Source: Crocosphaera subtropica ATCC 51142 (GTDB lineage Bacteria; Cyanobacteriota; Cyanobacteriia; Cyanobacteriales; Microcystaceae). Taken from it: a DNA stretch of 32,000 bases. Positions 1,232 through 32,000 of the stretch are shown one piece after another. The stretch is taken from assembly GCF_000017845.1 (NCBI RefSeq), contig NC_010546.1, positions 630,001 through 662,000 of the forward strand. The letters are read 5' to 3'. Both the position numbers and the translations under genes were made by a program. A model generated the notes under the pieces. The model worked only from the letters and a program-made list of their open reading frames with translations, ran no database searches and had not been told where the DNA came from. Numbering within the stretch: the first letter of the stretch is position 1; every line of letters starts with the position of its first letter.

Positions 1232-3937
1232 TTATAGCCAATTTCCAACAAGAGTATAAGCTGACCAATAAAAAGGATGTTTGTACCAACGGTTTTTTAA
1301 CATAGCTAATTGTGCTTGTCTTAAAGCCTCTGCTTTTGATAATTTATTAGTAGATAATTGCTCATAAACTTGAGCCATAATGACTGCAGTAGCTTGGTCA
1401 TTCACTGACCATAATGTGGCTAAGGTACTTCTACCACCAGCACGCACGGCAAACCCTGCTAACCCAAGAGCAGCACGACTATCTCCTGATGCCGTTTCAC
1501 AAGCACTTAAGATTAATAATTCTATGGGTTTGTTTCCTCTGGGGTCATTTTCTTTCAGTAATTGTTCTAATTCTAATACGTTAATATAACTATCCCAAGC
1601 AACGATATAAGTTTGTTCAAATTGAGAACTAAATTGACCATGAGTGGCAAAATGAACAATGGGAAATGACTGATTTTCTAAGATATTTTGTAAATTATCT
1701 AAGGTAAATTCTTCATTTAGTAAAGCAGTGGTCGGAACTTGTTGTTGAATAGCTCTTAATTCTTGTTTAACATAAAATAAAGGAACCAATCCTTCTTGTT
1801 GAAACGTCTCTGTGAGTCCCCCAAAAAGCGTATTTAATCCCTGATTTTGTAGGGGTTTGGGTGATAGTAAACTTAACCCAGGACTTAAGGCTACTCGATA
1901 GTTTTCAATAAGATATTTTTTACCATCATATAAAGCACCCATCGGCGCATTTCTAAATATGCCATCTGGTACAAATACTAAGGTTTTAATTTTATTTTTT
2001 TGTAGTTGATTAACAAAGGGTTGAACTAACCATTGATAGAGAATTTTACCATCATCAAAAAAGGCTCTTTGGCTTCGTATTACTATGTTATAGCGAAATT
2101 GCTTGACTTGTTTTTCTAATTCTTCTTGAGAAATTTCAGTAATATGAACTCGTAAAGATTGATCGGGTAAACTGACTAACACAGCCAAGCGATCGCTTAA
2201 AATGATAGGATAAACAATTGCAGCAGTATCATCAATTTCAGCTACATCTACTGGTTCACTTTCGACACAAATATCATTAAAAAAGTCGTTCAATTGCGCT
2301 GCTTGTAGGGCTTCAACTTGTTGACGAGCTTCTTCTAAGGTTTCTTGGCTAACAATTTCTTGATTATTTCTTGGTAATAATAAACTTAATAATTGTCGAT
2401 AAATGGGTTCTACTTTCTCCTGAAAAGAGAATTTATACTCTCTATTATTAGCTAAATCATCTCTTAAAGTTTCAAGGGTTGTAACGGCTCCTAAATACGC
2501 AGAAATAGCTTCTTTTTCAAATCCCAACCCATAGAGAATTCTTCCGAGTTGCCATTGTAATATATAAGTTATACTGGAACTTTGTCTGGATTGAGATTTT
2601 ATTAAAGCTTGTTCTGTTATTTGTTTGGCTTTTTCATTTAATTGTTGATTGTTTAAATTAATTTTATTAATATCAGTAAATTTATAGGTTTTAGAACAAT
2701 CGAATACATCACTTACCGTTATATGATCTAGTTGACAAGTTTTAGTTAAGGCAAGTTTTTCATACAGTTTTCCTCTATCACCAAGTGCATAAATAATTCC
2801 TTTATCATAGTTAAGACTTTCAGCTTCTTTTTGAGCTTTTTCTAATAAGTTTTTAATTTTTTTCCAAGGGGGCAATAAATCAGATGAATCAGCGATATTA
2901 CTCCATTTTAATAAAAGGTTTGCTAGGTAAATTTGACTATCAACTTTAGTTTGATTTATAGGGAATTGTAATAAATCATTTTCTATATCAATTAACAGCT
3001 TTTGTATTTCTATCCATGCTTGTTGGTTGATTAATAAATTTAATTGAGCTAATTTATTTTTGATTTTAATTTCTAAGTTATTCGCTATTATTATAGCCTG
3101 TTGATAATTCTCCTTTGCTCCTTGAATGTCATTTTGTAATTCTAAGTTTTGTCCTAAGTTAAAGAAAATGGAGGCTTTTACCTCCGAAGAAGAAACTTGA
3201 GATAAAATTTTATTCAGTATTCCTTGAGAACTTTCTAAATTACCCTGTTGACGTAAAATTTGTGCTAAAGTTAGCCATCCAGCTTGTTCTAAAGAGGTTA
3301 AATCTTGAGATAATGAAGAACTAATATTATCTAAATTCAATTCATAACATTTCAACATATTGCCGAGTAAATTATTAGCTAATTTTTGACAAGCTTTTGT
3401 ATATAATCCTAGAGATTGTAACGATCTAGCTTGATTAATATTTGTGCGTAAAATACCAGTATTATCTTTAATTTTTTTATAGGTTTCTGTGGATTTTTCC
3501 CAACTGTATAAAGCGGCCAAAGGATCACCTTTAGCTAATAATAAGGTTCCTTGAATATTTAAAGCTTCAGCTAAAATAGGAAGGGTTTTATTATCCTGGG
3601 ATTGAGAGTTTAACAACGCCAAACTGCTATGAATAGAATGGTCTGCTTGTTCCCATTGTCCTAATTGACTATAAGCTAAAGCAAGATAACTTAAAACTCT
3701 CCCTTGACTCAAGATATCCCCTTGTTGGCGATAATCTTGTAGAATATTTAACCAAGTTGCGATCGCTTGGTCAATATCTCCTTGTTGATACCATTCTCTG
3801 CCTTGTTGTTCCTGTATCAAAACAGGCGCAGTTCCTAGGACTCTATTCCCAGGAAGAATAGACCAAGAAAAGGTTAAACTTAAGCTTAGGAATAATAAGA
3901 GTAAAAAACGAACCACAGAGCCTATAATAAAAAGCAT
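1232..3937 (-). CDS. TPR-repeat / CHAT-domain (caspase-like) protein with N-terminal signal or anchor
   Basis: The long ORF is 1232..3982. The ATG at 3937 gives MLFIIGSVVRFLLLLFLSLSLTFSWS, a hydrophobic leader. Several TPR-like units follow (YQQGDIDQAIATW, ALAYSQLGQWEQA, NLGQNLELQNDIQGAKENYQQA). The C-terminal CHAT domain has a His (VHFATHG, ~1638-1660) and a Cys (LSACETA, ~1491-1512). Confidence 0.85.
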   Translation of the reverse strand: MLFIIGSVVRFLLLLFLSLSLTFSWSILPGNRVLGTAPVLIQEQQGREWYQQGDIDQAIATWLNILQDYRQQGDILSQGRVLSYLALAYSQLGQWEQADHSIHSSLALLNSQSQDNKTLPILAEALNIQGTLLLAKGDPLAALYSWEKSTETYKKIKDNTGILRTNINQARSLQSLGLYTKACQKLANNLLGNMLKCYELNLDNISSSLSQDLTSLEQAGWLTLAQILRQQGNLESSQGILNKILSQVSSSEVKASIFFNLGQNLELQNDIQGAKENYQQAIIIANNLEIKIKNKLAQLNLLINQQAWIEIQKLLIDIENDLLQFPINQTKVDSQIYLANLLLKWSNIADSSDLLPPWKKIKNLLEKAQKEAESLNYDKGIIYALGDRGKLYEKLALTKTCQLDHITVSDVFDCSKTYKFTDINKINLNNQQLNEKAKQITEQALIKSQSRQSSSITYILQWQLGRILYGLGFEKEAISAYLGAVTTLETLRDDLANNREYKFSFQEKVEPIYRQLLSLLLPRNNQEIVSQETLEEARQQVEALQAAQLNDFFNDICVESEPVDVAEIDDTAAIVYPIILSDRLAVLVSLPDQSLRVHITEISQEELEKQVKQFRYNIVIRSQRAFFDDGKILYQWLVQPFVNQLQKNKIKTLVFVPDGIFRNAPMGALYDGKKYLIENYRVALSPGLSLLSPKPLQNQGLNTLFGGLTETFQQEGLVPLFYVKQELRAIQQQVPTTALLNEEFTLDNLQNILENQSFPIVHFATHGQFSSQFEQTYIVAWDSYINVLELEQLLKENDPRGNKPIELLILSACETASGDSRAALGLAGFAVRAGGRSTLATLWSVNDQATAVIMAQVYEQLSTNKLSKAEALRQAQLAMLKNRWYKHPFYWSAYTLVGNWL
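2189..2196. repeat. HIP1 palindrome GCGATCGC
   Basis: Exact 8-mer read in the sequence. Confidence 0.95.
3759..3766. repeat. HIP1 palindrome GCGATCGC
   Basis: Exact 8-mer read in the sequence. Confidence 0.95.
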
Positions 3938-4156
3938 TTTACTTATATTTGTTGACCTCGGTTGTGTCAGATTAAGGATCAATCCACTTTAAAATAACAC
4001 TGCTGATAATCTAGAGATTTTCTATAAAATTTTCAGATCCACAACCCGATCACATTATTCTAAGATTAAGACAGGGTAAACTGCTCATTCGACAACTCCA
4101 TTCTCTGTGGCTAACCCCAACCCATTCCCGAAATGATTTTGAACACTTCAAAAACT

Positions 4157-4678
4157 ATGAAACATACCCTTTCTGTCCTAGTTGAAGATGAAGCCGGCGT
4201 TTTAACCCGTATTGCGGGTTTATTTGCTCGTCGTGGGTTTAATATTGAGAGTTTAGCCGTCGGTCCAGCCGAACAACCTGGCATTTCTCGCATTACGATG
4301 GTTGTTCCTGGAGATGATAGCACGATTGAACAATTAACCAAACAACTCTACAAATTGATTAACGTCCTTAAAGTCAACGATATTACCCAAACCCCTTGCG
4401 TAGAAAGAGAACTGATGTTAGTCAAAGTGAGTGTTACGGCCACTAACCGTGCTGAAGTGTTAGAAGTAGCTCAGGTTTTCCGAGCTAGAATTGTAGATAT
4501 TTCTGATGATACAGTCACTGTAGAAGTGGTGGGTGACCCCGGAAAAATGGTGGCCATTGTCCAAATGTTGAATAAATTTGGCATTCGGGAAGTAGCACGG
4601 ACTGGAAAAATTGCCTTAACCCGTGAATCGAGAGTTAATACCGAATATCTCAAGTCCTTAGAAGCTAAAATTCAGTAG
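4157..4678 (+). CDS. ilvN: Acetolactate synthase small (regulatory) subunit
   Basis: [36 protein letters not shown] is the canonical ACT-domain N-terminus of IlvN/IlvH. The ORF track starts 8 codons earlier (4133); the ATG at 4157 matches the usual ~172-aa length. Confidence 0.9.
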
Positions 4679-4956
4679 ATTAGCCTGTTACTTAATCTAA
4701 ATTTAGGGATATCCCCACTAGATAGGGTATTAGCTCCCTAGTCTGCCTCTCATCTCAAGTTGTACTATAGTATTAAGAGTGGAGTTGCAATACTCCTGAT
4801 ATACCTCCTTAATTATTAATTAGATAAGGAAAATAGTCAGGAGTTAAAACAAAGCTAAATATCAAATGCTAGATTACATCAATAATCTCTATTCGTCTAT
4901 GCGATAGGGTTATCCAAGAACTATAATCAATAGGAGTGTTTAAGAGATTAGCAATT

Positions 4957-5181
4957 ATGAGTAACATTGACGACCAAATCCAACAAGAAAGAGAAAACGC
5001 AAAAAACGTCTGTAGCACTGAAGGTAGTGATTCTGGAAATTGTGCAGCTGCTTGGGATGCAGTAGAGGAACTTCAAGCAGAAGCTTCCCATCAACGTCAA
5101 AAACAAACCCCCAAAACTAACTTTGAACAATATTGTGACGACAATCCTGATGCAGTTGAATGTCGAGTTTATGATGACTAA
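4957..5181 (+). CDS. cp12: CP12 (Calvin-cycle GAPDH/PRK regulatory protein)
   Basis: Contains AAWDAVEELQAEASHQ and the C-terminal Cys pair YCDDNPDAVECRVYDD, which are CP12 signatures. The ATG at 4957 (MSNIDD..) is preferred over the GTG at 4936. Confidence 0.85.
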   Translation: MSNIDDQIQQERENAKNVCSTEGSDSGNCAAAWDAVEELQAEASHQRQKQTPKTNFEQYCDDNPDAVECRVYDD

Positions 5182-5236
5182 AAACAATAAGTATTTTAAT
5201 TGGCTTATTGTTCTTTAAATTTATCTAAAGCTCACA

Positions 5237-5274
5237 GCAGTGAAGATTACCTGTAATTTTCACTGCTTTTTTTT
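5237..5274 (+). terminator. Rho-independent terminator after cp12
   Basis: Perfect 8-bp stem GCAGTGAA / TTCACTGC (5237-5244 and 5259-5266) followed by T8 (5267-5274). Confidence 0.75.
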
Positions 5275-5581
5275 AGGGAAAAGCTAAAATGGTAGAGACG
5301 TTAATTAAGAAATGGATGGAGGGATATAATCAGAGCAAAGAAAAGCCACAGTAAAATAAAGATAAGATGACTTTTACCGTTGTTAAGATAATAAAGTCTA
5401 TAATCTTACCTTTCAACGCAACAACTTGTTAGAAAGTCTTAAGAAAGGGACTTAAATCCTGGTTATAAAAACAACTTCTAACTGATGACTTCTGATTTTA
5501 GACTTCGTTAACAGTGGTCAAAAGATCAGAAAAATCTTAAACTAAACAAATGTTAAATATTTCATAATCCATTAATTTATT

Positions 5582-6667
5582 ATGTCGGTTCTGGCAGCGA
5601 TCGCAGTTTTAATCATATTAATTGTTGTTCATGAGTTGGGTCACTTTTCAGCAGCTAGGTTACAAGGAATCCATGTAACTCGCTTTTCCATTGGATTTGG
5701 CCCTGTTTTAGCAAAATATAAGGGAAAAGAAACAGAATACACCCTTTGCGCCATTCCTTTAGGGGGATTTGTCGGATTTCCTGATGATGACCCTGAGAGC
5801 AATATTGCTCCAGATGACCCGGATTTACTCCGTAATCGTCCCATTTTTGATCGTGCCATTGTGATTAGTGCCGGCGTTATCGCTAATCTTATTTTTGCCT
5901 ATTTTCTCTTGGTGGGACAAACCGCTACCATCGGGGTTCAAGAGTTACAACCAGGTTTAAGCATTCCCCAAGTGGACGAAAATTCTGCGGCCATGGTAGC
6001 CGGTATCGAATCAGGTGATGTCATCCTTTCAGTGGATAATCAATCCTTGGGAGATTTTCCCGATGCGACCACCCTATTTATTGAAAAGGTTAAAAATTCT
6101 GCGGGTCAACCCCTGGATTTAAAAGTTGAAAGAGAGGATAAGATTGTCGATTTAACGGTCATTCCCGAAGCGAATGAGGAGGGAGAAGGAAAAATCGGAG
6201 TCGCATTGTTACCTAATGTACAATTAAACCGTTCTCAAAATTTACTCGAAGCTTTCAGTTATAGCGCGGAAGCTTATCAAAATGTCACCATGTTAACCTT
6301 GCAAGGATTTTGGCAATTAATCAGTAATTTTCAAGAAAATGCCAAACAAGTTGCAGGCCCTGTGAAAATTGTTGAATATGGGGCGAGTATTGCTGAAAAT
6401 AATCTGGGGAATTTATTTCAGTTTGGGGCTTTAATTAGCATTAATTTAGCCATTATTAATACCCTTCCTTTACCGGCTTTAGACGGGGGACAATTAGTCT
6501 TTTTATTAATTGAAGGTTTGTTAGGTAAACCCTTACCCCTAAAACTTCAAGAAGGTATCATGCAAACGGGTTTAGTGTTACTCCTTAGTTTAGGTATCTT
6601 TATCATTATTCGGGATACGGTTAATTTAGCAGTTGTTCAAGATTTAATTCAACAAATTGGCTTGTAA
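5582..6667 (+). CDS. rseP: RIP (site-2) zinc metalloprotease RseP family
   Basis: HELGH zinc motif at the N-terminus, a central PDZ-like segment (AGIESGDVILSVDN), the C-terminal NTLPLPALDGG motif, and multiple TM segments. Confidence 0.85.
   Translation: MSVLAAIAVLIILIVVHELGHFSAARLQGIHVTRFSIGFGPVLAKYKGKETEYTLCAIPLGGFVGFPDDDPESNIAPDDPDLLRNRPIFDRAIVISAGVIANLIFAYFLLVGQTATIGVQELQPGLSIPQVDENSAAMVAGIESGDVILSVDNQSLGDFPDATTLFIEKVKNSAGQPLDLKVEREDKIVDLTVIPEANEEGEGKIGVALLPNVQLNRSQNLLEAFSYSAEAYQNVTMLTLQGFWQLISNFQENAKQVAGPVKIVEYGASIAENNLGNLFQFGALISINLAIINTLPLPALDGGQLVFLLIEGLLGKPLPLKLQEGIMQTGLVLLLSLGIFIIIRDTVNLAVVQDLIQQIGL
5597..5604. repeat. HIP1 palindrome GCGATCGC
   Basis: Exact 8-mer read in the sequence. 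Confidence 0.95.
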
Positions 6668-6692
6668 GCTTAAACGAATTAATATAATCAAG

Positions 6693-6721
6693 AGAGATGG
6701 TAGCTTTACCGTCTCTTTTTT
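6693..6721 (+). terminator. Rho-independent terminator after rseP
   Basis: 10-bp stem AGAGATGGTA / TACCGTCTCT with one G-U pair and a 4-nt loop, followed by a T-run at 6716-6721. Confidence 0.65.
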
Positions 6722-6769
6722 ATTTATAAAGTAGAATAAAATAACTAAACTCTAAGCTAGATTAGCCTT

Positions 6770-7339
6770 ATGCAAGTAACTATACCCAAAAATTTATCCA
6801 TCGAAGATTATTTAAAACAAGAAGAAAAAGCCGACTTTAAAAGCGAGTATATCAACGGAAACATTATTCCTATGGCGGGTGGAACAGTCAATCACAACCA
6901 AATTGCGGTAAATATTACAACCGAACTTAATTATGCGTTTAAAAAGCGAGATTATCGGGTGTATATGGGAGATGTTCGCTTATGGATACCAGAAAAAAAC
7001 ATTTTTACTTATCCAGATATTATGGTGATCAAAGGTGATCCTATCTATTACGAAAATCGTAAAGATACTATTTTAAATCCTAGTTTAATTATAGAAGTTT
7101 TATCCCCTTCTACCAAAAATTATGATAAAGAAGGCAAGTTTTCTGCTTATCGAACAATTCAAGGATTTTCAGAATATATTTTAGTCAGTCAAACTAAAAC
7201 TTATGGGGGAAAATTCACAAAAACTGACGCTAAAACATGGTTATTTCAAGAATTTTATGAAGAAGATCAAACCATAACAATACAATTGGAAAATATATCT
7301 TTGCAGTTTGATGACATTTATCATAAAGTTGATTTTTAA
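6770..7339 (+). CDS. Uma2 family (DUF820) endonuclease
   Basis: Full-length 189-aa ORF with the family pattern YINGNIIPMAGGTVNHNQI, YPDIMV, LIIEVLSPSTKNYDKEGKFSAY. Confidence 0.85.
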   Translation: MQVTIPKNLSIEDYLKQEEKADFKSEYINGNIIPMAGGTVNHNQIAVNITTELNYAFKKRDYRVYMGDVRLWIPEKNIFTYPDIMVIKGDPIYYENRKDTILNPSLIIEVLSPSTKNYDKEGKFSAYRTIQGFSEYILVSQTKTYGGKFTKTDAKTWLFQEFYEEDQTITIQLENISLQFDDIYHKVDF

Positions 7340-7353
7340 GTTTATATTCACTT

Positions 7354-7383
7354 AAAACAAAAAGAGTCAACCACTGTTGACCC
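7354..7383 (-). terminator. Possible terminator of the methyltransferase gene
   Basis: On the minus strand, GTCAAC-cagt-GTTGAC (6-bp stem at 7366-7381) is followed by TCTTTTTGTTTT. The stem is short, so this is only moderate. Confidence 0.4.
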
Positions 7384-7412
7384 TACAATAATGATTTATT
7401 ATTAATTACCAA

Positions 7413-8363
7413 TTATAATGGTTTTGTAGCAACAATTGTCCGATGACGATGATCACTAGGAACTGTCGTTTGATAATCAAATCCTAATTCTTTTAACGCA
7501 TTTTCCACATTAAAAGTATAATAATCATCACTATGAGGTTCGGTACTTTTCATCAAAGTGAATAAGACCGGTGGTAAGTTTTGAATCACTTCTGATCTAG
7601 GATTATTATCAACAATACCGAGAACACCCCCAGGCCGTAAAAGACGTAACACTTCCTTAAAAATAGCGATCGCAGCATGACGGGGTAATTCATGGAGAAC
7701 AAACTGAATGGTAATAATATCAAAGGAATTATCCGCAAAGTTTGTTTTTTCAGCTAAACCATGTATCCATTGACTAATTTCTTGCTGTTCATCGGTGACT
7801 TTTGCCACTGCTAACATATAAGGAGATAAATCAAGTCCGATGGTATTAATGGGTGTATTTTGTCGTTGGCTATAGTAACGATGCAATTCTTTCGTCGAAA
7901 TGCCAACCGAACAACCAATATCCAGAATATCCTTGACTTGAGGGGGACTATAGGGTTCTAAAACTGCATGAAAACTGGATCGAAGTCGTTTTTGTGCTTC
8001 TTGCCAGGTTAAATCTTCATTTTTCCAGACTCGAAGACCTAAAGACTGGGTAGCCGGAATGGCTTCAAAAGAAGCTTTCCAGCATAAGTTACCTTCTTCG
8101 TAAGCATGAAAAGGAACCAGATAATAGTCAGGATAGACTACATCCGGGTTCGTCATTTGTCTGAGTAAGCTTTTAGCGGGGGATTTTTCTAAGGTTTGAC
8201 AGTTTCCTTCCCAAGAAATGCCATTTTTTTCTGCTGTTTTGATAATAACTTGTCTCGCTTGGTGGGTCATGAGGCGATAAATAGGCTTTGTTTTGATCAT
8301 TACATTGACAAAGCGCGAGAGAAAATCATCACCTGTCCAGTCAGGTTTAACTTTATCGGCCAT
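7413..8363 (-). CDS. Class I SAM-dependent methyltransferase (Methyltransf_11-like)
   Basis: Motif I ILDIGCSVGIST and post-I/II motifs (GLDLSPYML, FDIITIQFVLHELP, LRPGGVLGIVD). The substrate is not inferable. Confidence 0.8.
   Translation of the reverse strand: MADKVKPDWTGDDFLSRFVNVMIKTKPIYRLMTHQARQVIIKTAEKNGISWEGNCQTLEKSPAKSLLRQMTNPDVVYPDYYLVPFHAYEEGNLCWKASFEAIPATQSLGLRVWKNEDLTWQEAQKRLRSSFHAVLEPYSPPQVKDILDIGCSVGISTKELHRYYSQRQNTPINTIGLDLSPYMLAVAKVTDEQQEISQWIHGLAEKTNFADNSFDIITIQFVLHELPRHAAIAIFKEVLRLLRPGGVLGIVDNNPRSEVIQNLPPVLFTLMKSTEPHSDDYYTFNVENALKELGFDYQTTVPSDHRHRTIVATKPL
7666..7673. repeat. HIP1 palindrome GCGATCGC
   Basis: Exact 8-mer read in the sequence. Confidence 0.95.
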
Positions 8364-8479
8364 AATTTGAAAATGAGGGTTGATGGTTTGAAGATACTTT
8401 TAACTATATCACTATTCAGTAATATAAGGTATTTTGTTGATGAAACTAAGCCATTGGACTTATGTAATCCTAAAAATAG

Positions 8480-8487
8480 GCGATCGC
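8480..8487. repeat. HIP1 palindrome GCGATCGC
   Basis: Exact 8-mer read in the sequence. Confidence 0.95.
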
Positions 8488-8573
8488 TTTAGTATTTCTT
8501 ATTCTAATATTGAATAGTTTCGGATGTTCAAAATATTAGTTACAACGTTAATAACTTTAGGAGACAGCATAAC

Positions 8574-9005
8574 ATGGAAGAATTATTTGAGCTAAAAAAG
8601 ATGTTACTCGCAGGAAATATTGATGATGCTTTGTTGTTAGTAGAGGAACTAACAGAAATGAGTAAAGATGATAAACTCAATAAGATTTTTAGTTTCAGTA
8701 TAATTTTATTGTTACATCTCATTAAAAAACGAGCAGAAAAACGTAGTACCCGTTCATGGGAAACCTCTATTGCTAACTCTGTGCGACAGATTCAGCGAAC
8801 AAATAAAAGACGTAAAGCTAAAGGAAATTATCTGACTTCAACAGAATTAATAGAAACGTTAGAGGATGCTTACGCTTCAGCGTTAAGACAAGCAGCTTTA
8901 GAAGCATTTGAAGGGAAATATGAAGCAGAAGAACTTAATGAAATAGTTGATAAAACTGCTATTATTGATGAAGCAATAGAATTAATTGGGTTCTACCGAA
9001 CTTAG
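8574..9005 (+). CDS. DUF29-like helical protein (hypothetical)
   Basis: The 143-aa ORF follows an AGGAG about 12 nt upstream. Its layout resembles DUF29: LLLHLIKK....RSTRSWETSI...RQIQR... then LEDAYASALRQAALE. The assignment is from pattern memory only. Confidence 0.5.
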   Translation: MEELFELKKMLLAGNIDDALLLVEELTEMSKDDKLNKIFSFSIILLLHLIKKRAEKRSTRSWETSIANSVRQIQRTNKRRKAKGNYLTSTELIETLEDAYASALRQAALEAFEGKYEAEELNEIVDKTAIIDEAIELIGFYRT

Positions 9006-10366
9006 CGTGTAGATTTAACCACTAAAATGCCAAGTTAGGAAACTTCTAAGTTTAAAATTATCAAAATTTCTAAAACCATAACCTCTTCTTTTAATCAGCT
9101 TTAATTTGTTATTAATTCCCTCCACAACACCGCTATTTGTTCTCTCGTCAAAGTAAGCAATGATTTCTCCCATCCAACGTCTAATGGTTCCGAAGCTTTT
9201 AGGATAAACTGTATGAGCCTCTGCACACCAATCCGCTAGTTCAAACAGTCCTGATATCCAATCAATATTTTCATCAAAAACCTTTCTAAATTTCTCTTTT
9301 AGAAGGTGCATCTTTGAAAGAATAGGTACAGTTTTATAGATTTCTTCTAATTTCTCTTTTTGTTGGTCGCTTAAATCTTCTTCATTTTTAAGTAAAGCAT
9401 ATTTACTCTTATTTAATCCTGAAAGTAATTGTTTTTTTTCTGGAGAATCCTTTAAAGCAATTGCTTCTCTTTTTGACTTTTTTCTTTGAGCATCTAACTC
9501 ATCGGTAACTTGCTTCATTACATGGAATCTATCAGCCACTATTTCGGCTTGTGGCATTAATTTTTTAGCCACTTTTTTATAAGGTTGCCAAAAGTCTATA
9601 CTAACTTCAACTATCTGTCTTAAAACCTCTTCTCCCCAAGCTTCTAGATATTTTGAGACTTCCTCTTCTGTTCGTTTTTCTATCAGTCCTATAATCACTC
9701 CTTTATCCAAATCTACTAAAACTACATAATACTTTCCTTGTCCTTTAACTACAGCAATCTCATCTATGCCTAATCGTCTTAATTTCTGTGGTTTCTTCTT
9801 CCCTAATTCTTGACCTATATCCTTTAGCATCGTTTCTATCTCTTGTTCACTTACTCCATTTCTTTGTGCTACGTTTTTAATATCGCCATTTAAAACTTCT
9901 GCGACAATTTTCTTCTTCAATCTTTCGGTGTAAGTTCTCTTTTTCTTGATATCTTTCAATTCTTCTGTGAATTTCTTTTGACATTTTTCACATCTCATTT
10001 GACGACGATTTATTTTGAGGTAAACATCTTGCTCTCCCCAAGATAAATCTCTGATAGTTAGTTCATTATTTTGATGTAGTTTTCTAGTGACAGAACCACA
10101 GTATATACAAGTTGTTTTTTTATCTACTTTCTCTAATGACAAAACTATTCCCATTCCCTTGATTAACTGATAATCCATAACAGTAAATCCTTCTAATTGA
10201 AGAATATTTGTCATTAAGTTTAGTTGAGAATTTGACGGCATTAGTGTAACTTAACTTAAAATAGCATTCTTTTTCTAATACCTATTCAACCATCAAATAT
10301 CCTTAAAAGCAACCCTGACAAAGCTTTTGGCTATTATTCTCTTGTCTTTATGCTTTCAAAAACACG
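9006..10366 (-). mobile_element. ISL3-family insertion sequence (ends approximate)
   Basis: It carries a single intact ISL3 transposase gene. Both candidate termini carry CGTGT (9006-9010, and ACACG at 10362-10366). The element fills the whole gap between two convergent stop codons (9003-9005 and 10370-10372). The ~1.36 kb size fits ISL3. Confidence 0.7.
9015..10241 (-). CDS. ISL3 family transposase
   Basis: 408 aa with an N-terminal zinc-finger pair (CIYCGS ... CEKCQKKF). The ISL3 DDE region shows [41 protein letters not shown] and [25 protein letters not shown]. Confidence 0.92.
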
Positions 10367-10369
10367 TTT

Positions 10370-12442
10370 TTATTTTTTTAATTTACATGACAAGTTCGGT
10401 AGAACCACTATTCCTTGTTCTTTCCATTCTTCGGGGGTGCTATTCTTGCGATTAAGATTAACTTGAGCAAAATCACTTTCTTTGACAAAATTACTTAATT
10501 CAGGTTGTTGCCAAACTTCAGAGAGGGAAGTTTCACATATATATAGAAGTCGTCTAGCACGAGTAATGGCAACATAAAGTAAATTAAACTCTAGTGCTAA
10601 TTCAGGAATTTCTGTCTCTTTTAACTGGCGTTTAGGATTTAGTTTTTTATCCCATAAATTTTGTTTTTCTACAAAAAAATCAATTAAAAACACAGTATCA
10701 AATTCTAATCCTTTTGCTTCTTCTACTGTAAAAATGCGCTTTGAATTAAATGCTGCTTGTAGTTCTTTTTTCTGTTCTTCAGTTTTAACAATAATACCTT
10801 CCCCTGCTTTAATCTCTTGTAAAATATTAGATATTTTTGAAAAAGGATGTTTAATTAATCCTGTAAGTTCCCCTGAATTTCTTCCCTCAATAGTTGCTAG
10901 TGTATCTCTTTCATCAAGGAAGCGATCGCGTAATTTTAATAATTGATGTGATAAATTAGCTAAAGATTTAATATTGCGAAAATTAAGAGTTAAATTATTA
11001 AGTTTTTCACATTCAAAATCCAAATTATAAAGATTTACTGTTAAATCTTCCCAACGAAACCCACTGGGACTAATCATTTGATTGAGATCACCAGCAAAGA
11101 TTAATTGACTATCTTTTTTAGACATTTCAACAAGTAACCTAATTTGAATTTCTGCGAAATCTTGAACTTCATCACAAATCACGAGGTTATATTGTTTAAA
11201 CTTATTATCTCGAATTATTTTAAGTGCTTCTCTAGTTAAATCTATTTCGTCATAATACTCTATTGGTCGTTTTTTTTTGTCTTTTTTCTTTGTCTTTTTT
11301 TTGTCTTTTTCTTGGCTCAGTGTTTTCTGATACCAGCAAGCTAAGTTATGAATTTCTGGTCTTTCTTCACATGAGATCACATGAGAGCGATTTTTTCCCT
11401 TATTTTTATAGTCTTCTAAACTCAATAAAGGTGATTCAGTCTCAAGATGAGAACCTTTGATAACTCCTCTAATTTCTTCCCAAATAAAATAAGCAGGATA
11501 ACCTTTTTTATGATACGTTTTCTCCTCATATTTTTTCTCAAATTTATTGTAGTTTAATTTTTCTCTATCGTTTAGAAACTCTGAGTTTGAATTATTAATT
11601 CTATTTTCGCATAACTCCTCAATGGTTTGAAATTGAATAATATCAAAAATTTCTTGTGAATCAATTTTAAATTCATCTAATCTAATTAAACGTTCAAACT
11701 GTTTTTTGACCTCTTGTACTAAAACAGGATTATAAGCAATATATAAAGCTTTTCCTTCCTTCTCATCATTTAAACGTTGTTTTGCCCAATTTAAAAGACG
11801 ATACAATCCAATGGTTGTTTTTCCTGTTCCTGCACTTCCAGAAATTAATAAAGTTTCTGTTTTTTCAACTAATTCTTTTTCTTGTAGCGTTAGTAAATAA
11901 GGTAAATCTGCACTATTTTCAATAATTGCTTTTTCCCATTGTTCTCTAGTTTCTAAAACCTTATAATTCGTATTATCAAGTGAACTTAAAAAGTCGTCTG
12001 GAAGATTTAAGTCTTCTTCTATTGCTATTTCTATGTTATATTTTTCTTCCTCATCTAAAGAACAATAATTTTGCTCTAAATCGCCGATTATTTTTTCTAT
12101 ATCTGTCCTATCTAATAATGCTATATCGTCATTTTTGGTTCTCGCTCTTCTTGCCTGCCTTACAACATCATCATGATCTAAACAAATATCTTGAACAATC
12201 ATATACTGTCGCCCATAAGTATAAACTAAACGACTCCCTCTATTAATTCTAGCTTCCCAAATATTTTGCCCAATTCCATTAAGTTTTTTAGCCCTTAATC
12301 CGCCATCAAATTGCCTTCTATCAATTTTTTCGATACACTCCCATATTCTTTTTTGTAAAATTTTATCATTACAGTCTCTTAAAAATTTTTCAACGTCTGA
12401 ATGTATTTGTATCGATATATTCTGATTAGTCATAAAAAGCAT
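10370..12442 (-). CDS. UvrD/Rep-type SF1 helicase with RelE/ParE-like N-terminal domain
   Basis: Helicase motifs are Walker A GSAGTGKTT (11813-11839), motif II VICDEVQD, III FAGDLNQ, IV LNFRN, V EEAKGLEFDTVFL and VI LLYVAITRARRLLYI. N-terminal residues ~45-95 read KKLNGIGQNIWEARINRGSRLVYTY..MIVQDICLDHDDV, the RelE/ParE toxin-fold signature. The gene is noticeably AT-rich. Confidence 0.8.
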   Translation of the reverse strand: MLFMTNQNISIQIHSDVEKFLRDCNDKILQKRIWECIEKIDRRQFDGGLRAKKLNGIGQNIWEARINRGSRLVYTYGRQYMIVQDICLDHDDVVRQARRARTKNDDIALLDRTDIEKIIGDLEQNYCSLDEEEKYNIEIAIEEDLNLPDDFLSSLDNTNYKVLETREQWEKAIIENSADLPYLLTLQEKELVEKTETLLISGSAGTGKTTIGLYRLLNWAKQRLNDEKEGKALYIAYNPVLVQEVKKQFERLIRLDEFKIDSQEIFDIIQFQTIEELCENRINNSNSEFLNDREKLNYNKFEKKYEEKTYHKKGYPAYFIWEEIRGVIKGSHLETESPLLSLEDYKNKGKNRSHVISCEERPEIHNLACWYQKTLSQEKDKKKTKKKDKKKRPIEYYDEIDLTREALKIIRDNKFKQYNLVICDEVQDFAEIQIRLLVEMSKKDSQLIFAGDLNQMISPSGFRWEDLTVNLYNLDFECEKLNNLTLNFRNIKSLANLSHQLLKLRDRFLDERDTLATIEGRNSGELTGLIKHPFSKISNILQEIKAGEGIIVKTEEQKKELQAAFNSKRIFTVEEAKGLEFDTVFLIDFFVEKQNLWDKKLNPKRQLKETEIPELALEFNLLYVAITRARRLLYICETSLSEVWQQPELSNFVKESDFAQVNLNRKNSTPEEWKEQGIVVLPNLSCKLKK
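10922..10929. repeat. HIP1 palindrome GCGATCGC
   Basis: Exact 8-mer, located inside the helicase gene. Confidence 0.95.
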
Positions 12443-12519
12443 CTGAACCCATATAGGTTAAGATTCCCAAAACCTTTCTTAAACTAACAGACTTCTAATT
12501 TACTCTAAATTTAAACAAC

Positions 12520-12547
12520 AAAAAAGCACCCCCAAACTTGGGAGTGC
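12520..12547 (-). terminator. Rho-independent terminator of psbA
   Basis: The minus strand reads GCACTCCCAA-gt-TTGGGGGTGC followed by TTTTTT. The stem spans 12526-12547 and the T-run 12520-12525. Confidence 0.8.
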
Positions 12548-12579
12548 TTTCTTGTATTATTTAGTTGTTATCAAAGGAA

Positions 12580-14156: not shown

Positions 14157-15980
14157 TTAGTACGTCGTCACAAGCATATCGTTTATCCATCTGTAGTTCG
14201 ATGGGATGTTAGATAGTTGTTTTGGTATGACACTATTACAGTCAGTTTTGTTACCAGACCTTTTCAGACTTCCGTCTGTTCGGGTCTTTTTGTCATGGCA
14301 GTGTCGATGGAGAAGTTGCCAATTTTTGTATTCATCTTTTCCGCCTTTCGACTTAGGGATGATATGGTCTAACTCTATGATGTCTCCATCTTTAAAGAAC
14401 AATCCGCAGTGGGTACATTTCCCTTTTTGCTTTTTGAGCATCGATGCTGTTCGCTTAGGCATCTCAGGATGTTTACCCATTCTTGTACTCCAGTAAACTA
14501 GGTTGCCGTCGTAGGGACTTGTTTCTCCTTTGACTTTTGCGTATTTTTGGCTCTTAAAGGAGCCGTATTCAGCAAGTGTATATGGATTGTTGTCACTTCT
14601 TGTAGCGAATACCCAGTTTTTATTCCCTATTGTTTGCCAATACTTTTTGATCCAGTATTCGCCTTTATTGGGATGTCTTCTCTTTGCCCATCTTCTGAGT
14701 TTCCAGTATATTCGATAATCCATTCGGTGAAATACCTTTGATGGACATCCAATTGAAAAGTAATTACACCATCCTTTTATTATAGGGTTAAGGTTTTTGA
14801 TTAGAATAGCCTGTGGTTGGGCTTTATGCCTATCAATTACCTCTTTTATTTTGGCGTAATGTATTTTCTGGCTTTCTTTTGACGGGGTTATGATTGTAGA
14901 AAATCCTAAAACCTTGCCATTTGTGTTCTTACCAGAGGTATGTTTTCCTGACTTGAATTGTCGGATATTAAAGCCAAGAAAGTTAAATCCTGGTTTTTCT
15001 CCTTCATATTCTTGCAGTGTATGGATTAATCTGGTTTTACTAGGTTTTATCTCTAGTCCCATGCCTATTAACCATTCAGAGATTATCTCTCTGCATCTTT
15101 GGACGATGGTAAGATTTTCGTGGATGATTACGAAATCGTCGGCGTATCGTATTAGGCTAATTGACTTTCGTCTGGCTGAAATGCTAATAAGATGTCCTTT
15201 TTCATTTCTCCAGTCTATATCTTTTGCCATTTCTTTTATCCGACTTTCCATACCATGTAAGGCAATATTAGCCAGTAGAGGGGATATAACTCCGCCTTGT
15301 GGTGTACCTTCAGATGTTGGGAACAACTTTTTCCCATCCATTACATCAGCTTTTAGCCAAGCTCGGATTTGTTTCCGTAGGGTAGGATAGGTATTTATTT
15401 TTTCTAAAAGTCGTTCATGGTCGATTTTATCGAAGCATTTGGCTATATCAGCGTCTAGCACATATTTGGGCTTAAGTCTGATTGCGCTGAATATTGCTCC
15501 GATGGCATCATGGCATGAGCGTCCTGGTCTGAACCCGTATGAGTTAGGCTCAAATTTGGCTTCCCATTCTGGCTCTAGAGCCATCTTGACAAGTCCCTGC
15601 AATGCTCGGTCTTTCATGGTAGGTATTCCTAAAGGTCGCTTTTCATCCCTCCCAGGTTTCGGAATCCATACTCTCCGAGTGGGCTTGACCTTTGTACCCA
15701 GTTTTAGTTTATTTACCAGTAAGAGACGTTGCTTTGGGGTTAGTGATTTAACACCATCCACACCTGCCGTCTTCTTTCCTTGGTTATCCTGAGTAACCCG
15801 ACGCACCGCTAAACATTTTGCAGCCCAGGATTTTGTGAGAAGTTTTTGGAGTCTGCGAACTGTCTTGACATCTCCACGACTAGACGCTCTGTAAATCCGC
15901 TTTTGCAACTTGAACGTTTCCCGTTCTAACTTTCGCCAGGGGATTTTGTTCCATTTATACATCGGTGATTCCGTGTTCAT
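14157..15980 (-). CDS. ltrA: Group II intron reverse transcriptase / maturase with C-terminal HNH endonuclease
   Basis: 607 aa. RT motifs are RRVWIPKPGRDEKRPLGIPTMKDRALQ, LDADIAKCFD, GTPQGGVISPLLANIAL and RYADDFVI. A maturase X region follows, then an HNH domain (CTHCGLFF...ELDHIIPKSKGGKDEYKNWQLLHRHCH). Confidence 0.95.
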   Translation of the reverse strand: MNTESPMYKWNKIPWRKLERETFKLQKRIYRASSRGDVKTVRRLQKLLTKSWAAKCLAVRRVTQDNQGKKTAGVDGVKSLTPKQRLLLVNKLKLGTKVKPTRRVWIPKPGRDEKRPLGIPTMKDRALQGLVKMALEPEWEAKFEPNSYGFRPGRSCHDAIGAIFSAIRLKPKYVLDADIAKCFDKIDHERLLEKINTYPTLRKQIRAWLKADVMDGKKLFPTSEGTPQGGVISPLLANIALHGMESRIKEMAKDIDWRNEKGHLISISARRKSISLIRYADDFVIIHENLTIVQRCREIISEWLIGMGLEIKPSKTRLIHTLQEYEGEKPGFNFLGFNIRQFKSGKHTSGKNTNGKVLGFSTIITPSKESQKIHYAKIKEVIDRHKAQPQAILIKNLNPIIKGWCNYFSIGCPSKVFHRMDYRIYWKLRRWAKRRHPNKGEYWIKKYWQTIGNKNWVFATRSDNNPYTLAEYGSFKSQKYAKVKGETSPYDGNLVYWSTRMGKHPEMPKRTASMLKKQKGKCTHCGLFFKDGDIIELDHIIPKSKGGKDEYKNWQLLHRHCHDKKTRTDGSLKRSGNKTDCNSVIPKQLSNIPSNYRWINDMLVTTY

Positions 15981-16573: not shown

Positions 16574-17104
16574 TTAATAAGGGGTTGAAGGAATTAACTC
16601 TAATTTGGACATAAAACTATGGCTCATTATAACGTCAATTACCTCTCCAGATTGGGAGGATTCTATTATTTTCAAAATCAAGGAACTAATTCTCAACCGA
16701 ACTAATCCACAAACGGTTAACAAAACCGATTTATATCGACTCTTATGTAAGCGAAATCTTTCTTGAACTACTTTAAATACTTTGACAACTCGAATTAAAT
16801 GCTCAACAAAAATCCGATTAGATGATAAAGCTTTATTTTCTTTTATTTGAGCTTCAGTTAATTCTCTTTTCTTAGTTTTTTTATGCGGAGTGATAATTTG
16901 AGTCTCTCCAATGTAGGCTTTATCAGCACTAAAAGTTTGGTTTATCTTGAATTTATTTAAAGTTTGCCGACAGATGTTAATGTCACTTGTCGGCCCAGGT
17001 TTTCCAATTACTACATCAATAATATCTTCAGCTTTTGGCAAGACAACGAATTGACTTTTTAAAGTATGTCTTTTCTGCTTACCCTGTCTCTTGGTGCGCG
17101 TTCC
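16574..17104 (-). pseudogene. Transposase C-terminal part (DDE_Tnp_4)
   Basis: The frame is open from 17104. It reads ..GKQKRHTLKSQFVVLPKAEDIIDVVIGKPGPTSDINI...ADKAYIG...NRIFVEHLI, the second half of the DDE domain. Confidence 0.75.
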
Positions 17105-17618
17105 CTAGGCGATTACGAATCGCCGGGGTCGCACCGCAATAATATTTTTTTTGTTCTTGATAATCTGAAGGTCTTTCAATAGCCTGTTCTGCGCTGTCTA
17201 CAATCAATTCATAATCAGTTAACATTTCAAGAACTATTTCTTTTTCTTCTTGAAACTTTTTTATTTGTTCTAATAAACTTGGTGGTAACTCTCCTTCAAA
17301 AAGTGTTTGCCAATAAGTAAAAATATTATGAGCCGTTGACTCACTTACTTGAAAAAGTAGTCCTAAGAGTTGAAAACTTATATTATGTCTTAAATAAACT
17401 AACGTTAGAACAATTTGTTCTTCTTCTGCTAATAAAGATGGACTTCCCGCACCAGGTTGATTAATTCTAATTTTTGTTTTTTCGTTCTCTTCTTTTTTTT
17501 TCTGATGAAGAAGCTTCCCTAGAGCAATCAATTGTTCCAATTGATTGTCATCAATTCCTAATAATCTTTTGGTTTGTTTAGGATATTTTTTTAGATAGCT
17601 CCAAGTGTAAGTTTCCAT
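17079..17618 (-). pseudogene. Transposase N-terminal part (HTH_Tnp_4 plus first DDE Asp)
   Basis: It carries an HTH region (EEEQIVLTLVYLRHNISFQLLGLLFQVSESTAHNIF) and LIVDSAEQAIERP...QEQKKYY. It then runs into foreign GC-rich sequence and stops (..CGATPAIRNRLGNAHQETG*). Confidence 0.75.
17087..17138 (-). repeat. ~52-nt GC-rich palindromic insertion splitting the transposase
   Basis: The minus strand reads TGCGGTGCGACCCCGGCGATTCGTAATCGCCTAGGGAACGCGCACCAAGAGA. Nested stems are GGTGCG/CGCACC, CCC/GGG and GGCGATT/AATCGCC. Removing 17087-17138 joins ..KKYY in frame to QGKQKRHTLK. Confidence 0.65.
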
Positions 17619-29962: not shown

Positions 29963-32000
29963 TCATATTATAGTCCTCGGTAATAATAAAGTTGATTCTA
30001 TTTCTTTTTTTACTGTTGAACTAATATTTCCCTCTCCTTGGAGACATTTAACTAAGAAAACATTACTATTATAAAATTGGTTCCACAACGCTTTTTCTTG
30101 TTCCCTTAATTGCCAATCATAGCAAATTTTACGATGATTAATCAATAAAGTACGAAAAGTCTCAACCCATTCTTGACCTTGAGTTTTCCACCAAGATATG
30201 ATTTTTTCTTTTCCTTGTTCGAGATCAGGAAGTTGACTTTTTAAATTTCTAAACTCTTCTAAAAAATCAGGCTCAAGTTTAAATTTTTGTTCTATTTCTA
30301 AACTTAGACATAAACTTAAAAAATGCTTAATATTAGGATATTTTACTAAATTTAAACTATCTATAAAGCCTCGTGCTAAACTAGAATCAAGTTTAATTTC
30401 TTTACTTAATTTATTTTGATAAGCAAATTGGGAATCTAAGGATAAAGCCAAGTTAAAATCTCGATGATTAAATAAAGTAAAATAAAAAGCTCTAACTGCT
30501 GACTTTTGGTAAGGTAAATTCATAGATTCAACTTTCTCATTAAGGAATTTTAGGCAATGTTGTAACTTGATATTCTGTTCCGCAACATTATCTATAACAT
30601 CTTTAATCTTTAATAAGAAATTATCGGCTTTGGGTAACATATTAACTGTTAATAAAATAACTTCTTGCCAACTATCATCTGTTATTTTCTCCGCTAAATT
30701 TATTAATTTATTTTCTAAACTTTGACTATCGCTTGCTAGAATATGTCGAGCGGTAAAATACTCTTGAAAAGTAAGATGAGAAAAAGAATAAACATCTTTA
30801 GCTCTTTCTACTAATACTCCATGTTGTATTTCGATAGATTTTAAAATTGCTTCACTGGTTAGCCATAAACTTTCTATATCTTCTTTGAAATTACAAAAAT
30901 TGCATAAGTAATCTTCAATAATTTCTTGGATTTCACGACCTTCAAAAAAATAACGCCTTTCAGAAAAAGTGGCTGCAGCAATTTTAGATAATAACTTTCT
31001 TTTATCAACTAAAGGTAAATCGTGATAAAAATCATCTCGTTTAATTCCTCTGGAGCAATCCCAACGCTGTAGTAAAATGTCTAAACCTGCTTCATAAAGT
31101 TTAGCACGTTGGCGAGGAAATTTAGCTCTTTCTTTGAACACTGAACATAAAAGATTCAGCAAAATTGGTGTAACTGCTAATTCTCGAATGGCTTCATTTT
31201 CAGGGCTATTTAATTGCTCTAAAAATTGCCTTGCTTTTTTCTTGCCTTCTGCTTTAGTATTACTCGTGACTATAAACCATTGTTGTGCAAAATATTTGAT
31301 TTTATTATAATCAAAGTCTGCTATTTCTACATAATTAAAACCCTTAAAATGAAACTTTTGTGCTGAGCTTCTAGAGGTAATAATGATTGAGTTATGGTAA
31401 AAGTCTTGGAAGAACAACTGAATATTTTGACACAGTATTTCTCTATATTGCTGAGGAACTTCATCTAAGCCGTCTAATAATAAAAGAAATTTTCCTGCTT
31501 CTAATAAAATTGTTATCTGTTGATGGGATAATCCACAATTTTTACCGTAATCAATTAAATACTTTTCTAAATTAATAACTTGCTCATTATCTTCCATCCA
31601 TTCACTTCTTAATTGAATAAAACAAGGAATTAAATCTTGTCTATATTTTCCCTGATTACATTGTAGAGCCAGATACTGTAAAAAAGTGGTTTTTCCTGCG
31701 CCTGGTTTCCCTAAGATGACTAATTTATCCTGTTTACTGAGCAGTTCTCGATCAAACACAGTGTTAGAATAGGGTTTGGAAAGGCGGAAACTATCAAACT
31801 GTGCAAAAGAGCTTTCTAGATCAGACACCTCTAACCAGCGTTGATAGTTAGGTTGAAGGTAAAAACTGGTCTTAGTATAAATTTTCTCTAGAGGAGGTTG
31901 GGTCAATTCAAAAGAAGATTGTAAGACACTACACTGAGTTGTGATGGCATTTTGAACTCTAGAACGCATCACCGATACTAATTCTGACACCTCTAAACTG
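29963..32000 (-). CDS. NACHT-domain STAND NTPase, 5'-partial (continues beyond the window)
   Basis: Walker A is ILGKPGAGKTTFLQYLA (~31688-31715) and Walker B is LLLLDGLDEV, with downstream NACHT motifs (IIITSRS, TPILLNLLC). The frame is open through base 31999, so the GTG at 31990 is not the real start. The C-terminal ~230 aa looks helical and ends in YDWQL.EQEKALWNQFYNSNVFLVKCL. Confidence 0.85.
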   Translation of the reverse strand, partial: SLEVSELVSVMRSRVQNAITTQCSVLQSSFELTQPPLEKIYTKTSFYLQPNYQRWLEVSDLESSFAQFDSFRLSKPYSNTVFDRELLSKQDKLVILGKPGAGKTTFLQYLALQCNQGKYRQDLIPCFIQLRSEWMEDNEQVINLEKYLIDYGKNCGLSHQQITILLEAGKFLLLLDGLDEVPQQYREILCQNIQLFFQDFYHNSIIITSRSSAQKFHFKGFNYVEIADFDYNKIKYFAQQWFIVTSNTKAEGKKKARQFLEQLNSPENEAIRELAVTPILLNLLCSVFKERAKFPRQRAKLYEAGLDILLQRWDCSRGIKRDDFYHDLPLVDKRKLLSKIAAATFSERRYFFEGREIQEIIEDYLCNFCNFKEDIESLWLTSEAILKSIEIQHGVLVERAKDVYSFSHLTFQEYFTARHILASDSQSLENKLINLAEKITDDSWQEVILLTVNMLPKADNFLLKIKDVIDNVAEQNIKLQHCLKFLNEKVESMNLPYQKSAVRAFYFTLFNHRDFNLALSLDSQFAYQNKLSKEIKLDSSLARGFIDSLNLVKYPNIKHFLSLCLSLEIEQKFKLEPDFLEEFRNLKSQLPDLEQGKEKIISWWKTQGQEWVETFRTLLINHRKICYDWQLREQEKALWNQFYNSNVFLVKCLQGEGNISSTVKKEIESTLLLPRTII

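Follow-up and report, generated by a model that had tools for sequence, protein, structure and literature searches.

RelE-fold domains joined to superfamily 1 (SF1) helicases have already been described in two prokaryotic systems. ARMADA type II is a four-gene anti-phage system that includes ArmD, which combines a RelE-like domain with a UvrD helicase (bioRxiv 10.1101/2025.09.15.676423; 10.1101/2025.09.22.677730). In the ARMADA type II preprint of September 2025, loss of any one of the four genes, or the Walker A substitution K266A in ArmD, ends protection, and the mechanism is reported as direct and non-abortive; the second preprint, on O-island 172, confirms the system with a weaker requirement for ArmD. 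In CoCoNuT systems, the predicted defence protein CnuH carries a RelE/colicin D-fold 'RNase toxin-like' (RTL) domain fused to an SF1 helicase (eLife 2024, PMC11090510). Here we describe cce_0635 of Crocosphaera subtropica ATCC 51142, which lies in a 32-kb stretch of contig NC_010546.1 (positions 630,001 to 662,000; hereafter the window, whose own numbering is used for all features of this locus). The gene joins a YoeB/RelE-fold domain to a UvrD/PcrA-type helicase through an acidic linker, and it is truncated at its 3' end by an insertion sequence (IS); its complete homologues continue into a tetratricopeptide repeat (TPR) or other alpha-solenoid module. An initial annotation, made from the sequence, had not recognised this architecture in any characterised helicase or named defence system. 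ArmD and CnuH are published fusions of a RelE fold to an SF1 helicase, however, and it is the stand-alone, TPR-bearing family that is uncharacterised: a literature search returned no description of that form, of cce_0635, or of a combination of YoeB, helicase and TPR.

We located ArmD as ECs_5264 (Z5902) of E. coli O157:H7 Sakai, a 704-aa protein encoded on SpLE6 beside Zorya II and Druantia III, whose K266 and D454 agree with the published numbering of the ArmD mutants; the ARMADA island was absent from the leuX site of E. coli ATCC 8739. Like the window family, ArmD carries a RelE-like N-terminal domain (N-domain), a long linker and a UvrD/GajB-like SF1A helicase on a single polypeptide. In hhalign it aligns collinearly with the family profile (probability 99.1%, E 1.3e-18; ~20% identity) along 568 columns that take in both the N-domain and the helicase, and its residues 6-99 align with the N-domain profile alone (probability 94.3%, E 1e-7). 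Equivalents of the family's R65, R71 and H90-D91 motif (cce_0635 numbering) are retained, whereas position 52 is Lys in the window family and Glu in ArmD, and position 63 is Glu in the family and Ser in ArmD. Unlike the family, ArmD ends directly after the helicase without TPR, has no Pfam YoeB match, and takes fourth place in an operon of fixed order, ArmA-ArmB-ArmC-ArmD, whose other three members it needs. The window family stands alone: no ArmA (BrxHII/RapA-like), ArmB (PglX-like methyltransferase) or ArmC (YprA-like) gene is present in the 32-kb window, and none recurs across ~85 loci. The anti-phage link suggested by the initial annotation is strengthened to the extent that a distant homologue is required in an experimentally shown system, although the second preprint finds the requirement weaker.

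As it stands in the window, the cce_0635 open reading frame (ORF; 10370..12442, minus strand; 690 aa, 100% identical to P0001 of this strain) is a chimera. Its native part (10407..12442, minus strand) comprises codons 1-678 plus 2 nt, and its tail (10370..10406, minus strand), which supplies most of codon 679, all of codons 680-690 (VLPNLSCKLKK) and the stop codon, is read from the inverted repeat of an ISL3-family IS. This element of 1418 bp (8989..10406; DDE_Tnp_ISL3, Zn_ribbon_ISL3 and HTH_Tnp_ISL3) is bounded by imperfect terminal inverted repeats of 39 nt (8989-9027 and 10368-10406, 79% complementary) and encodes a 408-aa transposase (9015..10241, minus strand). An intact relative fixes the junction. 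P0003, a metagenomic protein of 869 aa that is 96% identical to cce_0635, reads FFNAEKYNQAIECFEKGG... past '...EEWKEQGIV', where the window reads VLPNLSCKLKK*. The DNA of this relative, L087, aligns with the window from 12549 to 10407 at 97.5% identity and ends exactly at 10407, with 10406 being the outer end of the IS inverted repeat. The last 766 nt of L087 match nothing anywhere in the window, so at least 766 nt are absent, and a tblastn search of the window for the missing C-terminal fragment found none; the C-terminal 190 aa of P0003 gave zero matches in a large protein database, a search that missed P0003 itself and is thus uninformative on a 3' part elsewhere in the genome. Positions 10407-12442 (minus strand) represent the opening ~78% of a gene whose product is modular, and that cce_0635 is cut at its 3' end by the IS and otherwise has the architecture described here is close to certain.

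The far side of the IS does not carry the rest of the gene. A DUF29-family ORF (8574..9005, plus strand) has its final codons in the IS repeat as well, so that the two flanks are unrelated sequences, and there is no target-site duplication at 8989-10406, where the flanks TTAATTG and ACTATTCC differ. Because the far flank holds an unrelated gene and lacks a duplication, the event was an IS-associated deletion or rearrangement and not a simple insertion. It is recent, since cce_0635 and its intact relative L087 do not differ by a single nucleotide in codons 109-491. The initial annotation had placed the gene between an IS and psbA and had read its helicase as complete: both neighbours are adjacent and the helicase core is indeed whole, but the IS truncates the gene rather than merely flanking it, and the C-terminal TPR module has been lost. 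The IS alone is the reason that cce_0635 ends shortly after its helicase. Without its sensor module the gene is most probably a non-functional remnant, and it is unsuitable as a representative or functional example of its family.

The N-domain occupies residues 8-94 (12161..12421, minus strand). Residues 25-83 score 28.3 bits with Pfam YoeB_toxin (PF06769), above its gathering threshold of 27 (E 1.8e-6), and a phmmer search against Protein Data Bank (PDB) sequences matched S. aureus YoeB at E 0.0018. The NCBIfam model TIGR02116 (Txe/YoeB) scored below threshold (24.5, cut-off 51.8), no NCBIfam match passed any curated cut-off, and a precomputed PF06769 match is absent in most other family members. 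An AlphaFold2 model of residues 1-130, built from a 59-sequence alignment, has a predicted local distance difference test (pLDDT) score of 81-93 across residues 10-100 and a beta-alpha-alpha-beta-beta-beta-beta topology (strands E, helices H: E10-13, H15-23, H27-41, E51-53, E61-65, E71-76, E80-87). In a Foldseek search of the PDB with this model, the top 27 matches were all RelE/YoeB/YafQ-type toxins, with TM-scores of 0.74-0.80 on the target, led by M. tuberculosis RelK, S. aureus YoeB and E. coli YoeB (E 2.6e-5 to 8e-4). ParE structures appeared only from rank 33 downwards, at E 0.02-0.06 as against 2.6e-5 for RelK/YoeB, about 1000-fold worse; hhalign comparisons of the N-domain profile with single YoeB, RelE and ParE sequences (E 0.023, 0.014 and 0.12) are too weak to discriminate. 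The modelled structure thus confirms a RelE/ParE-superfamily fold for the N-terminus of cce_0635, and the low rank of ParE favours the RNase branch over the gyrase-poison branch.

Much of what the initial annotation read from the sequence is borne out here. A RelE-superfamily fold fused to an SF1A helicase is supported by Pfam, phmmer and the AlphaFold2 and Foldseek results; the toxin-like string that it quoted is present at residues 52-93, and its helicase motifs are all present, including LNFRN and YVAITRARRLLYI. The structure search that it had proposed for the N-terminus returned matches of RelE/YoeB/YafQ type, but ParE fell far lower. The gyrase-poison effector that it had offered beside an mRNA interferase loses its footing accordingly, the conserved Arg/Arg/His set being of the RNase type.

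Conservation within the N-domain was counted over 180 domains drawn from homologues and from representatives of 50%-identity clusters. Kept in these are K52 (174/180), E63 (177/180), R65 (177/180), R71 (178/180), H90 (all 175 domains without a gap there) and D91 (168/180). Alignments that range from cyanobacteria to Firmicutes show no variation at E63, R65, R71 and H90, and almost none at G48, R50, K52, K53, A64, F74, T75, D91 and V93. The domain has fold and topology in common with the type II toxins YoeB, RelK and RelE (PDB 2a6q, 6l8e, 3oei): R65, R71 and H90 align with R59, R65 and H83 of E. coli YoeB, which are thus kept, E63 and R65 align with RelE K52 and K54, and the conserved set also matches the position of RelE R61. 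The invariant glutamate of the window family, E63, is an addition that sits at the RelE K52 position. Those toxins are free-standing and paired with a YefM or RelB antitoxin, whereas the family domain is fused and has no antitoxin gene. Most cyanobacterial members also carry a hairpin insert of ~10 residues in this domain.

Differences between cce_0635 and L087 are unevenly spread. They are concentrated at window positions 12117-12549, in the toxin-like domain and in the 107 nt ahead of the gene (91.6% identical), and codons 22-108 contain 21 nonsynonymous and 14 synonymous changes; despite this clustering, the key residues G48, K52, E63, R65, R71 and H90 are the same in both. The pattern suggests that recombination exchanged the 5' end and left a mosaic gene. 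We considered positive selection on the toxin-like domain and rejected it in favour of a mosaic, as synonymous changes are as many as expected for a divergent recombined tract.

Between the N-domain and the helicase lies a linker of low model confidence (residues 95-185; 11888..12160, minus strand), with pLDDT below 50 at residues 106-125 and 141-157 of the full-length model. It is acidic, as had been noted, with a net charge of -13 over residues 100-165 of cce_0635. In 58/58 homologues tested, the corresponding stretch of ~65 residues is likewise negatively charged (-8 to -19, median -12), while the linker sequence itself is poorly conserved and the domains flanking it are neutral or basic.

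The helicase core spans residues 186-640 (10523..11887, minus strand) and is of UvrD/PcrA-type SF1A. Pfam assigns it to UvrD-helicase, UvrD_C and AAA_19; its best sequence-profile matches are PcrA (7.5e-19) and then UvrD; and Foldseek gives UvrD at 9e-16, with UvrD, PcrA, UvrD1 and Rep ahead of HelD, UPF1-type helicases and GajB. A two-RecA-domain core and SF1A motifs I, Ia, II, III, IV, V and VI are all present. Translation of the minus strand places the Walker A motif GSAGTGKTT at residues 202-210, including K208 (11813-11839), motif II VICDEVQD at 421-428 (11159-11182), motif III FAGDLNQ at 449-455 (11078-11098), motif V KGLEFDTVFL at 577-586 (10685-10714) and motif VI YVAITRARRLLYI at 623-635 (10538-10576). 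Invariant columns in the family are G202-T210, D424-D428, G451-Q455, R489, G578-E580 and T627-R628. A conserved post-helicase segment (residues 641-678; 10407..10522, minus strand) leads toward the absent TPR module, and its W644 and W673 vary little or not at all in the family alignments (A1/A4).

The complete homologues that we examined, cce_0635 aside, are 850-1670 aa long and carry a further 160-1000 aa of TPR or other alpha-solenoid after the helicase. Past residue ~678 they continue with TPR repeats of the form '..YY..A.FY.QA.ECF.KSGD', and the C-terminus is of TPR type in every phylum sampled: behind the helicase, Pfam assigns TPR or other alpha-solenoid repeats to members from cyanobacteria, acidobacteria, spirochaetes and clostridia; these tails are hypervariable in length and sequence. 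Several relatives are labelled 'Txe/YoeB family toxin / superfamily I helicase / TPR' by the Joint Genome Institute (JGI) pipeline. A word-indexed search returned ~65 cyanobacterial relatives at 34-44% identity and distant ones in Bacillus, Paenibacillus, Calditrichaeota and Acidobacteria, and an exhaustive profile search returned 2,071 representatives of 50%-identity clusters at E<=1e-30. The top 150 of these are all below 1e-95, and 107 of the 132 that were new among them have the N-domain. Among ~185,000 species representatives, each species being covered by one genome, a motif-seeded scan identified 208 stretches with a relative, including Thermoanaerobaculia, Holophagales, Sphaerochaeta, Thermodesulfobacteriota and Clostridium. 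The family thus extends over Cyanobacteria, Acidobacteriota, Spirochaetota, Bacillota and other phyla, on chromosomes and plasmids but mostly on chromosomes, with plasmid-borne members from four phyla, including those of Euhalothece, Crinalium, Cetobacterium and Paraclostridium; the phage genome collection contained zero members, which we treat as neutral evidence.

A few representatives depart from this layout. P0192 (3050 aa) and P0212 (4101 aa) belong to a handful of giant proteins whose helicase module is close to the C-terminus, and P0178, P0185 and P0198 (1660-1900 aa) have an internal RelE-like domain. The range of fused architectures is thus wider than the one described above. Base composition varies as well. 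At 29.7% GC against 36.3% for the window, and with a single HIP1 site at position 10922, cce_0635 is as AT-rich as the initial annotation had described. Family genes lie slightly below their flanks in GC at 45/49 cyanobacterial loci (median -2.8 points) and slightly above them at 27/28 loci of other phyla. Low GC is accordingly a weak sign of recent transfer, and we set it aside, the offset being small, general in cyanobacteria and reversed in other phyla.

Does the gene travel with a partner? Clustering of neighbouring ORFs across 86 family loci revealed no universal partner and no conserved small antitoxin gene. In the window, psbA lies 137 nt upstream of cce_0635 on the same strand, followed by a hairpin and T-run predicted to be terminator-like, and the 137-nt gap contains no ORF; the earlier remark that no antitoxin-sized ORF precedes the gene therefore stands, and extends to the ~85 related loci. 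At seven loci, all in Nostocales (L002, L003, L004, L016, L017, L019 and L046), the family gene is preceded at ~148 bp by a 75-aa HTH_3 (Xre-type) gene in the same orientation, which may be a clade-specific regulator. We rejected it as a common antitoxin, given that it is restricted to Nostocales and that the copies in Tolypothrix and Euhalothece are unrelated. Tandem paralogues occur at 17 Acidobacteriota loci, mostly in Thermoanaerobaculia, which hints at a heteromeric version; at L068, two same-strand paralogues (1477-5928 and 5971-10377) each have a RelE-like N-domain, a helicase and a long C-terminus.

Some neighbourhoods have a defence character. The Euhalothece plasmid carries NERD-UvrD helicases, TCAD9 kinases and cas1 near the family gene, the Crinalium plasmid a DUF262/DUF3696 pair, and B. 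tianshenii a PLD nuclease and MNT-HepT. In a scan of 124 nearest neighbours at 33 non-redundant loci, strong PADLOC matches were scattered (type IIG restriction-modification, PD-T4-6, PtuA, PDC-S01/S03/S17 and PbeA). The family is accessory and partly mobile, and is no consistent resident of defence islands. On three unrelated plasmids a ParA partition locus adjoins the family gene (L007 4930-10889, L009 5639-10270, L008 6899-11513; Euhalothece, Crinalium, Paraclostridium).

Other described proteins resemble the family in part. CnuH, compared here by description only, differs in having a UPF1-like helicase, an internal RTL domain placed after an OB fold, and a McrBC-type operon; none of the neighbours scanned at family loci was of McrBC type. 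GajB of Gabija is, like the family helicase, a UvrD-like defence ATPase, but it lacks a toxin-like N-domain and TPR and has the OLD-family nuclease GajA as its partner; no GajA-type neighbour was found among the loci examined, and PcrA and UvrD are closer to the family by sequence and fold. Cami1, the CARF-RelE accessory protein of type III CRISPR systems (PDB 8phb/8phj), is a RelE-fold ribosome-dependent RNase with a fused cis sensor and no antitoxin, and so a precedent for a RelE domain fused to its sensor. Its sensor is a cyclic tetraadenylate (cA4)-binding CARF domain in place of helicase and TPR, and its Foldseek match is weak (E~0.07).

What might a toxin-like domain fused to a motor protein do? 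The reading that we favour, and that together with the truncation and architecture we hold to be somewhat more likely than not, is that the intact protein would be an autonomous single-protein conflict system composed of sensor, motor and RNase. The variable TPR array and the ATP-driven helicase would probably form a sensor or switch for an invader protein or nucleic acid, and the N-domain would be an endoribonuclease-type effector that they control in cis. Judging from residue conservation, the active site would be of RNase type but non-canonical for YoeB, using a different acid/base pair, E63 and H90, with R65, R71, K52 and K53 binding phosphate. The acidic linker could mask the basic RNA-binding face of the N-domain until the motor is engaged, as the acidic C-termini of RelB and YefM do in trans. 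A defence role is suggested by the fold, the active-site-grade conservation, the absence of partner genes, the homology to ArmD and the defence-type neighbours at some loci. On this sequence-based evidence, we regard it as an evenly balanced question whether the family is a conflict or defence system with a catalytic N-domain. A bolder version, which we consider doubtful, would make the intact RelE-like-UvrD-TPR proteins one-protein immune systems in which a YoeB-type ribosome-dependent RNase, held by the linker as a built-in antitoxin, is triggered through TPR and helicase; ArmD would then be a derived form whose TPR sensor was swapped for the ARMADA partners.

Several observations weigh against a catalytic conflict role, and the main rival draws on some of them. 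In that account the N-domain has no catalytic role and its RelE fold is an adaptor for binding to RNA or the ribosome, and the family is a cellular RNA/DNA-handling helicase, acting for example at stalled complexes of ribosome and RNA polymerase. The catalytic set of E. coli YoeB, reportedly defined by Kamada and Hanaoka in 2005, is E46, R65, H83 and Y84. Only half of it is kept: R65 and H83 are present (as R71 and H90), but K52 stands in place of E46 and D91 in place of Y84, constantly over the 180 domains, so that catalysis would need another residue set. No RelE-domain mutant of ArmD is reported in the available parts of the two ARMADA preprints, and because ARMADA is described there as non-abortive, the RelE-like domain need not be a toxin even in ArmD. 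For the linker as antitoxin, charge is the sole basis. Genomic context points the same way in several clades. A divergent surE is conserved at 21 loci of the Okeania/Trichodesmium/Dapis group (some of them metagenome-assembled genomes), housekeeping families (SurE, SelB, AcrB, desaturases) are as numerous as defence matches among the 124 neighbours, and further housekeeping contexts include COX genes, RND efflux and two-component systems. Nostocales members are also syntenic among housekeeping genes, and this synteny and that with surE look like long vertical retention. PADLOC, which the initial annotation had proposed as a check, found no specific system model in cce_0635 itself, with only generic GajB/UvrD-type matches (GajB E~1e-16). 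The association with defence islands, which it had likewise proposed to test, is only partial: some homologues lie on plasmids or beside defence genes, whereas several clades are in stable housekeeping synteny. The structural neighbours of the helicase also include the RNA-polymerase-associated HelD as well as UvrD, which would suit a cellular role. We nevertheless judge the adaptor account unlikely. A near-absolute Glu/Arg/Arg/His/Lys set at RelE/YoeB active-site positions across 180 divergent domains is more typical of catalysis, and the patchy distribution over species in the motif scan, plasmid carriage in four phyla, hypervariable TPR tails and tandem paralogues fit a housekeeping helicase poorly; the sole functionally studied homologue, moreover, is a defence gene.

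That cce_0635 is, as it stands, an intact and working single-gene toxin-helicase system of abortive infection with an architecture unseen before seems to us very unlikely. The ORF is open and free of frameshifts, its toxin-like domain and helicase motifs are intact, and ArmD, a working relative of similar length (704 aa), also lacks TPR; but the 3' end is IS sequence, every complete member examined has a C-terminal module of at least 160 aa, and ArmD functions only with ArmA-C, none of which is in the window. The architecture is moreover a published one, and the abortive-infection logic offered by the initial annotation lacks direct support, ARMADA type II being reported to act directly and non-abortively. 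It is highly improbable that the family is instead a factor of plasmid maintenance or plasmid competition tied to partition systems and not to phage. Its adjacency to ParA on three unrelated plasmids would be explained, yet the copies are mostly chromosomal, no labile antitoxin partner for post-segregational killing accompanies them, and on small plasmids such adjacency could arise by chance. A ParE-type gyrase poison licensed by the helicase is barely credible: ParE has the same fold and its structures do occur in the Foldseek list, but at E~0.02-0.06 against 2.6e-5 for RelK/YoeB, the hhalign comparison with ParE is null, Pfam and NCBIfam choose YoeB, and a conserved C-terminal His with paired Arg is a feature of RNase toxins.

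If the family does work as a conflict system with a catalytic N-domain, a compact single-gene module of sensor, motor and RNase would join the prokaryotic immune systems, and it would be widespread in bloom-forming and filamentous cyanobacteria (Trichodesmium, Okeania, Microcoleus, Nostoc) and in soil Acidobacteriota. The family is abundant in ecologically important cyanobacteria, and the defence repertoire of these hosts is poorly studied. The family would also provide a simpler model for the role of the RelE-like domain of ArmD in ARMADA type II, and the conserved acidic linker offers an idea of how a RelE-type toxin might exist without an antitoxin gene.

The window holds further elements of mobility and conflict. 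A group II intron-type reverse transcriptase (RVT_N, RVT_1, maturase, HNH; 14157-15980, minus strand) lies just upstream of psbA. A 916-aa TPR-CHAT (caspase-like) protein is encoded at 1232-3982 (minus strand) and a NACHT/NCH2 STAND NTPase at 29963-31990 (minus strand), both of a kind known from NTP-dependent conflict systems in multicellular bacteria. A second transposase (HTH_Tnp_4, DDE_Tnp_4) occupies 16574-17618 (minus strand) and is split between two ORFs, which points to an IS of another family that has frameshifted or decayed.

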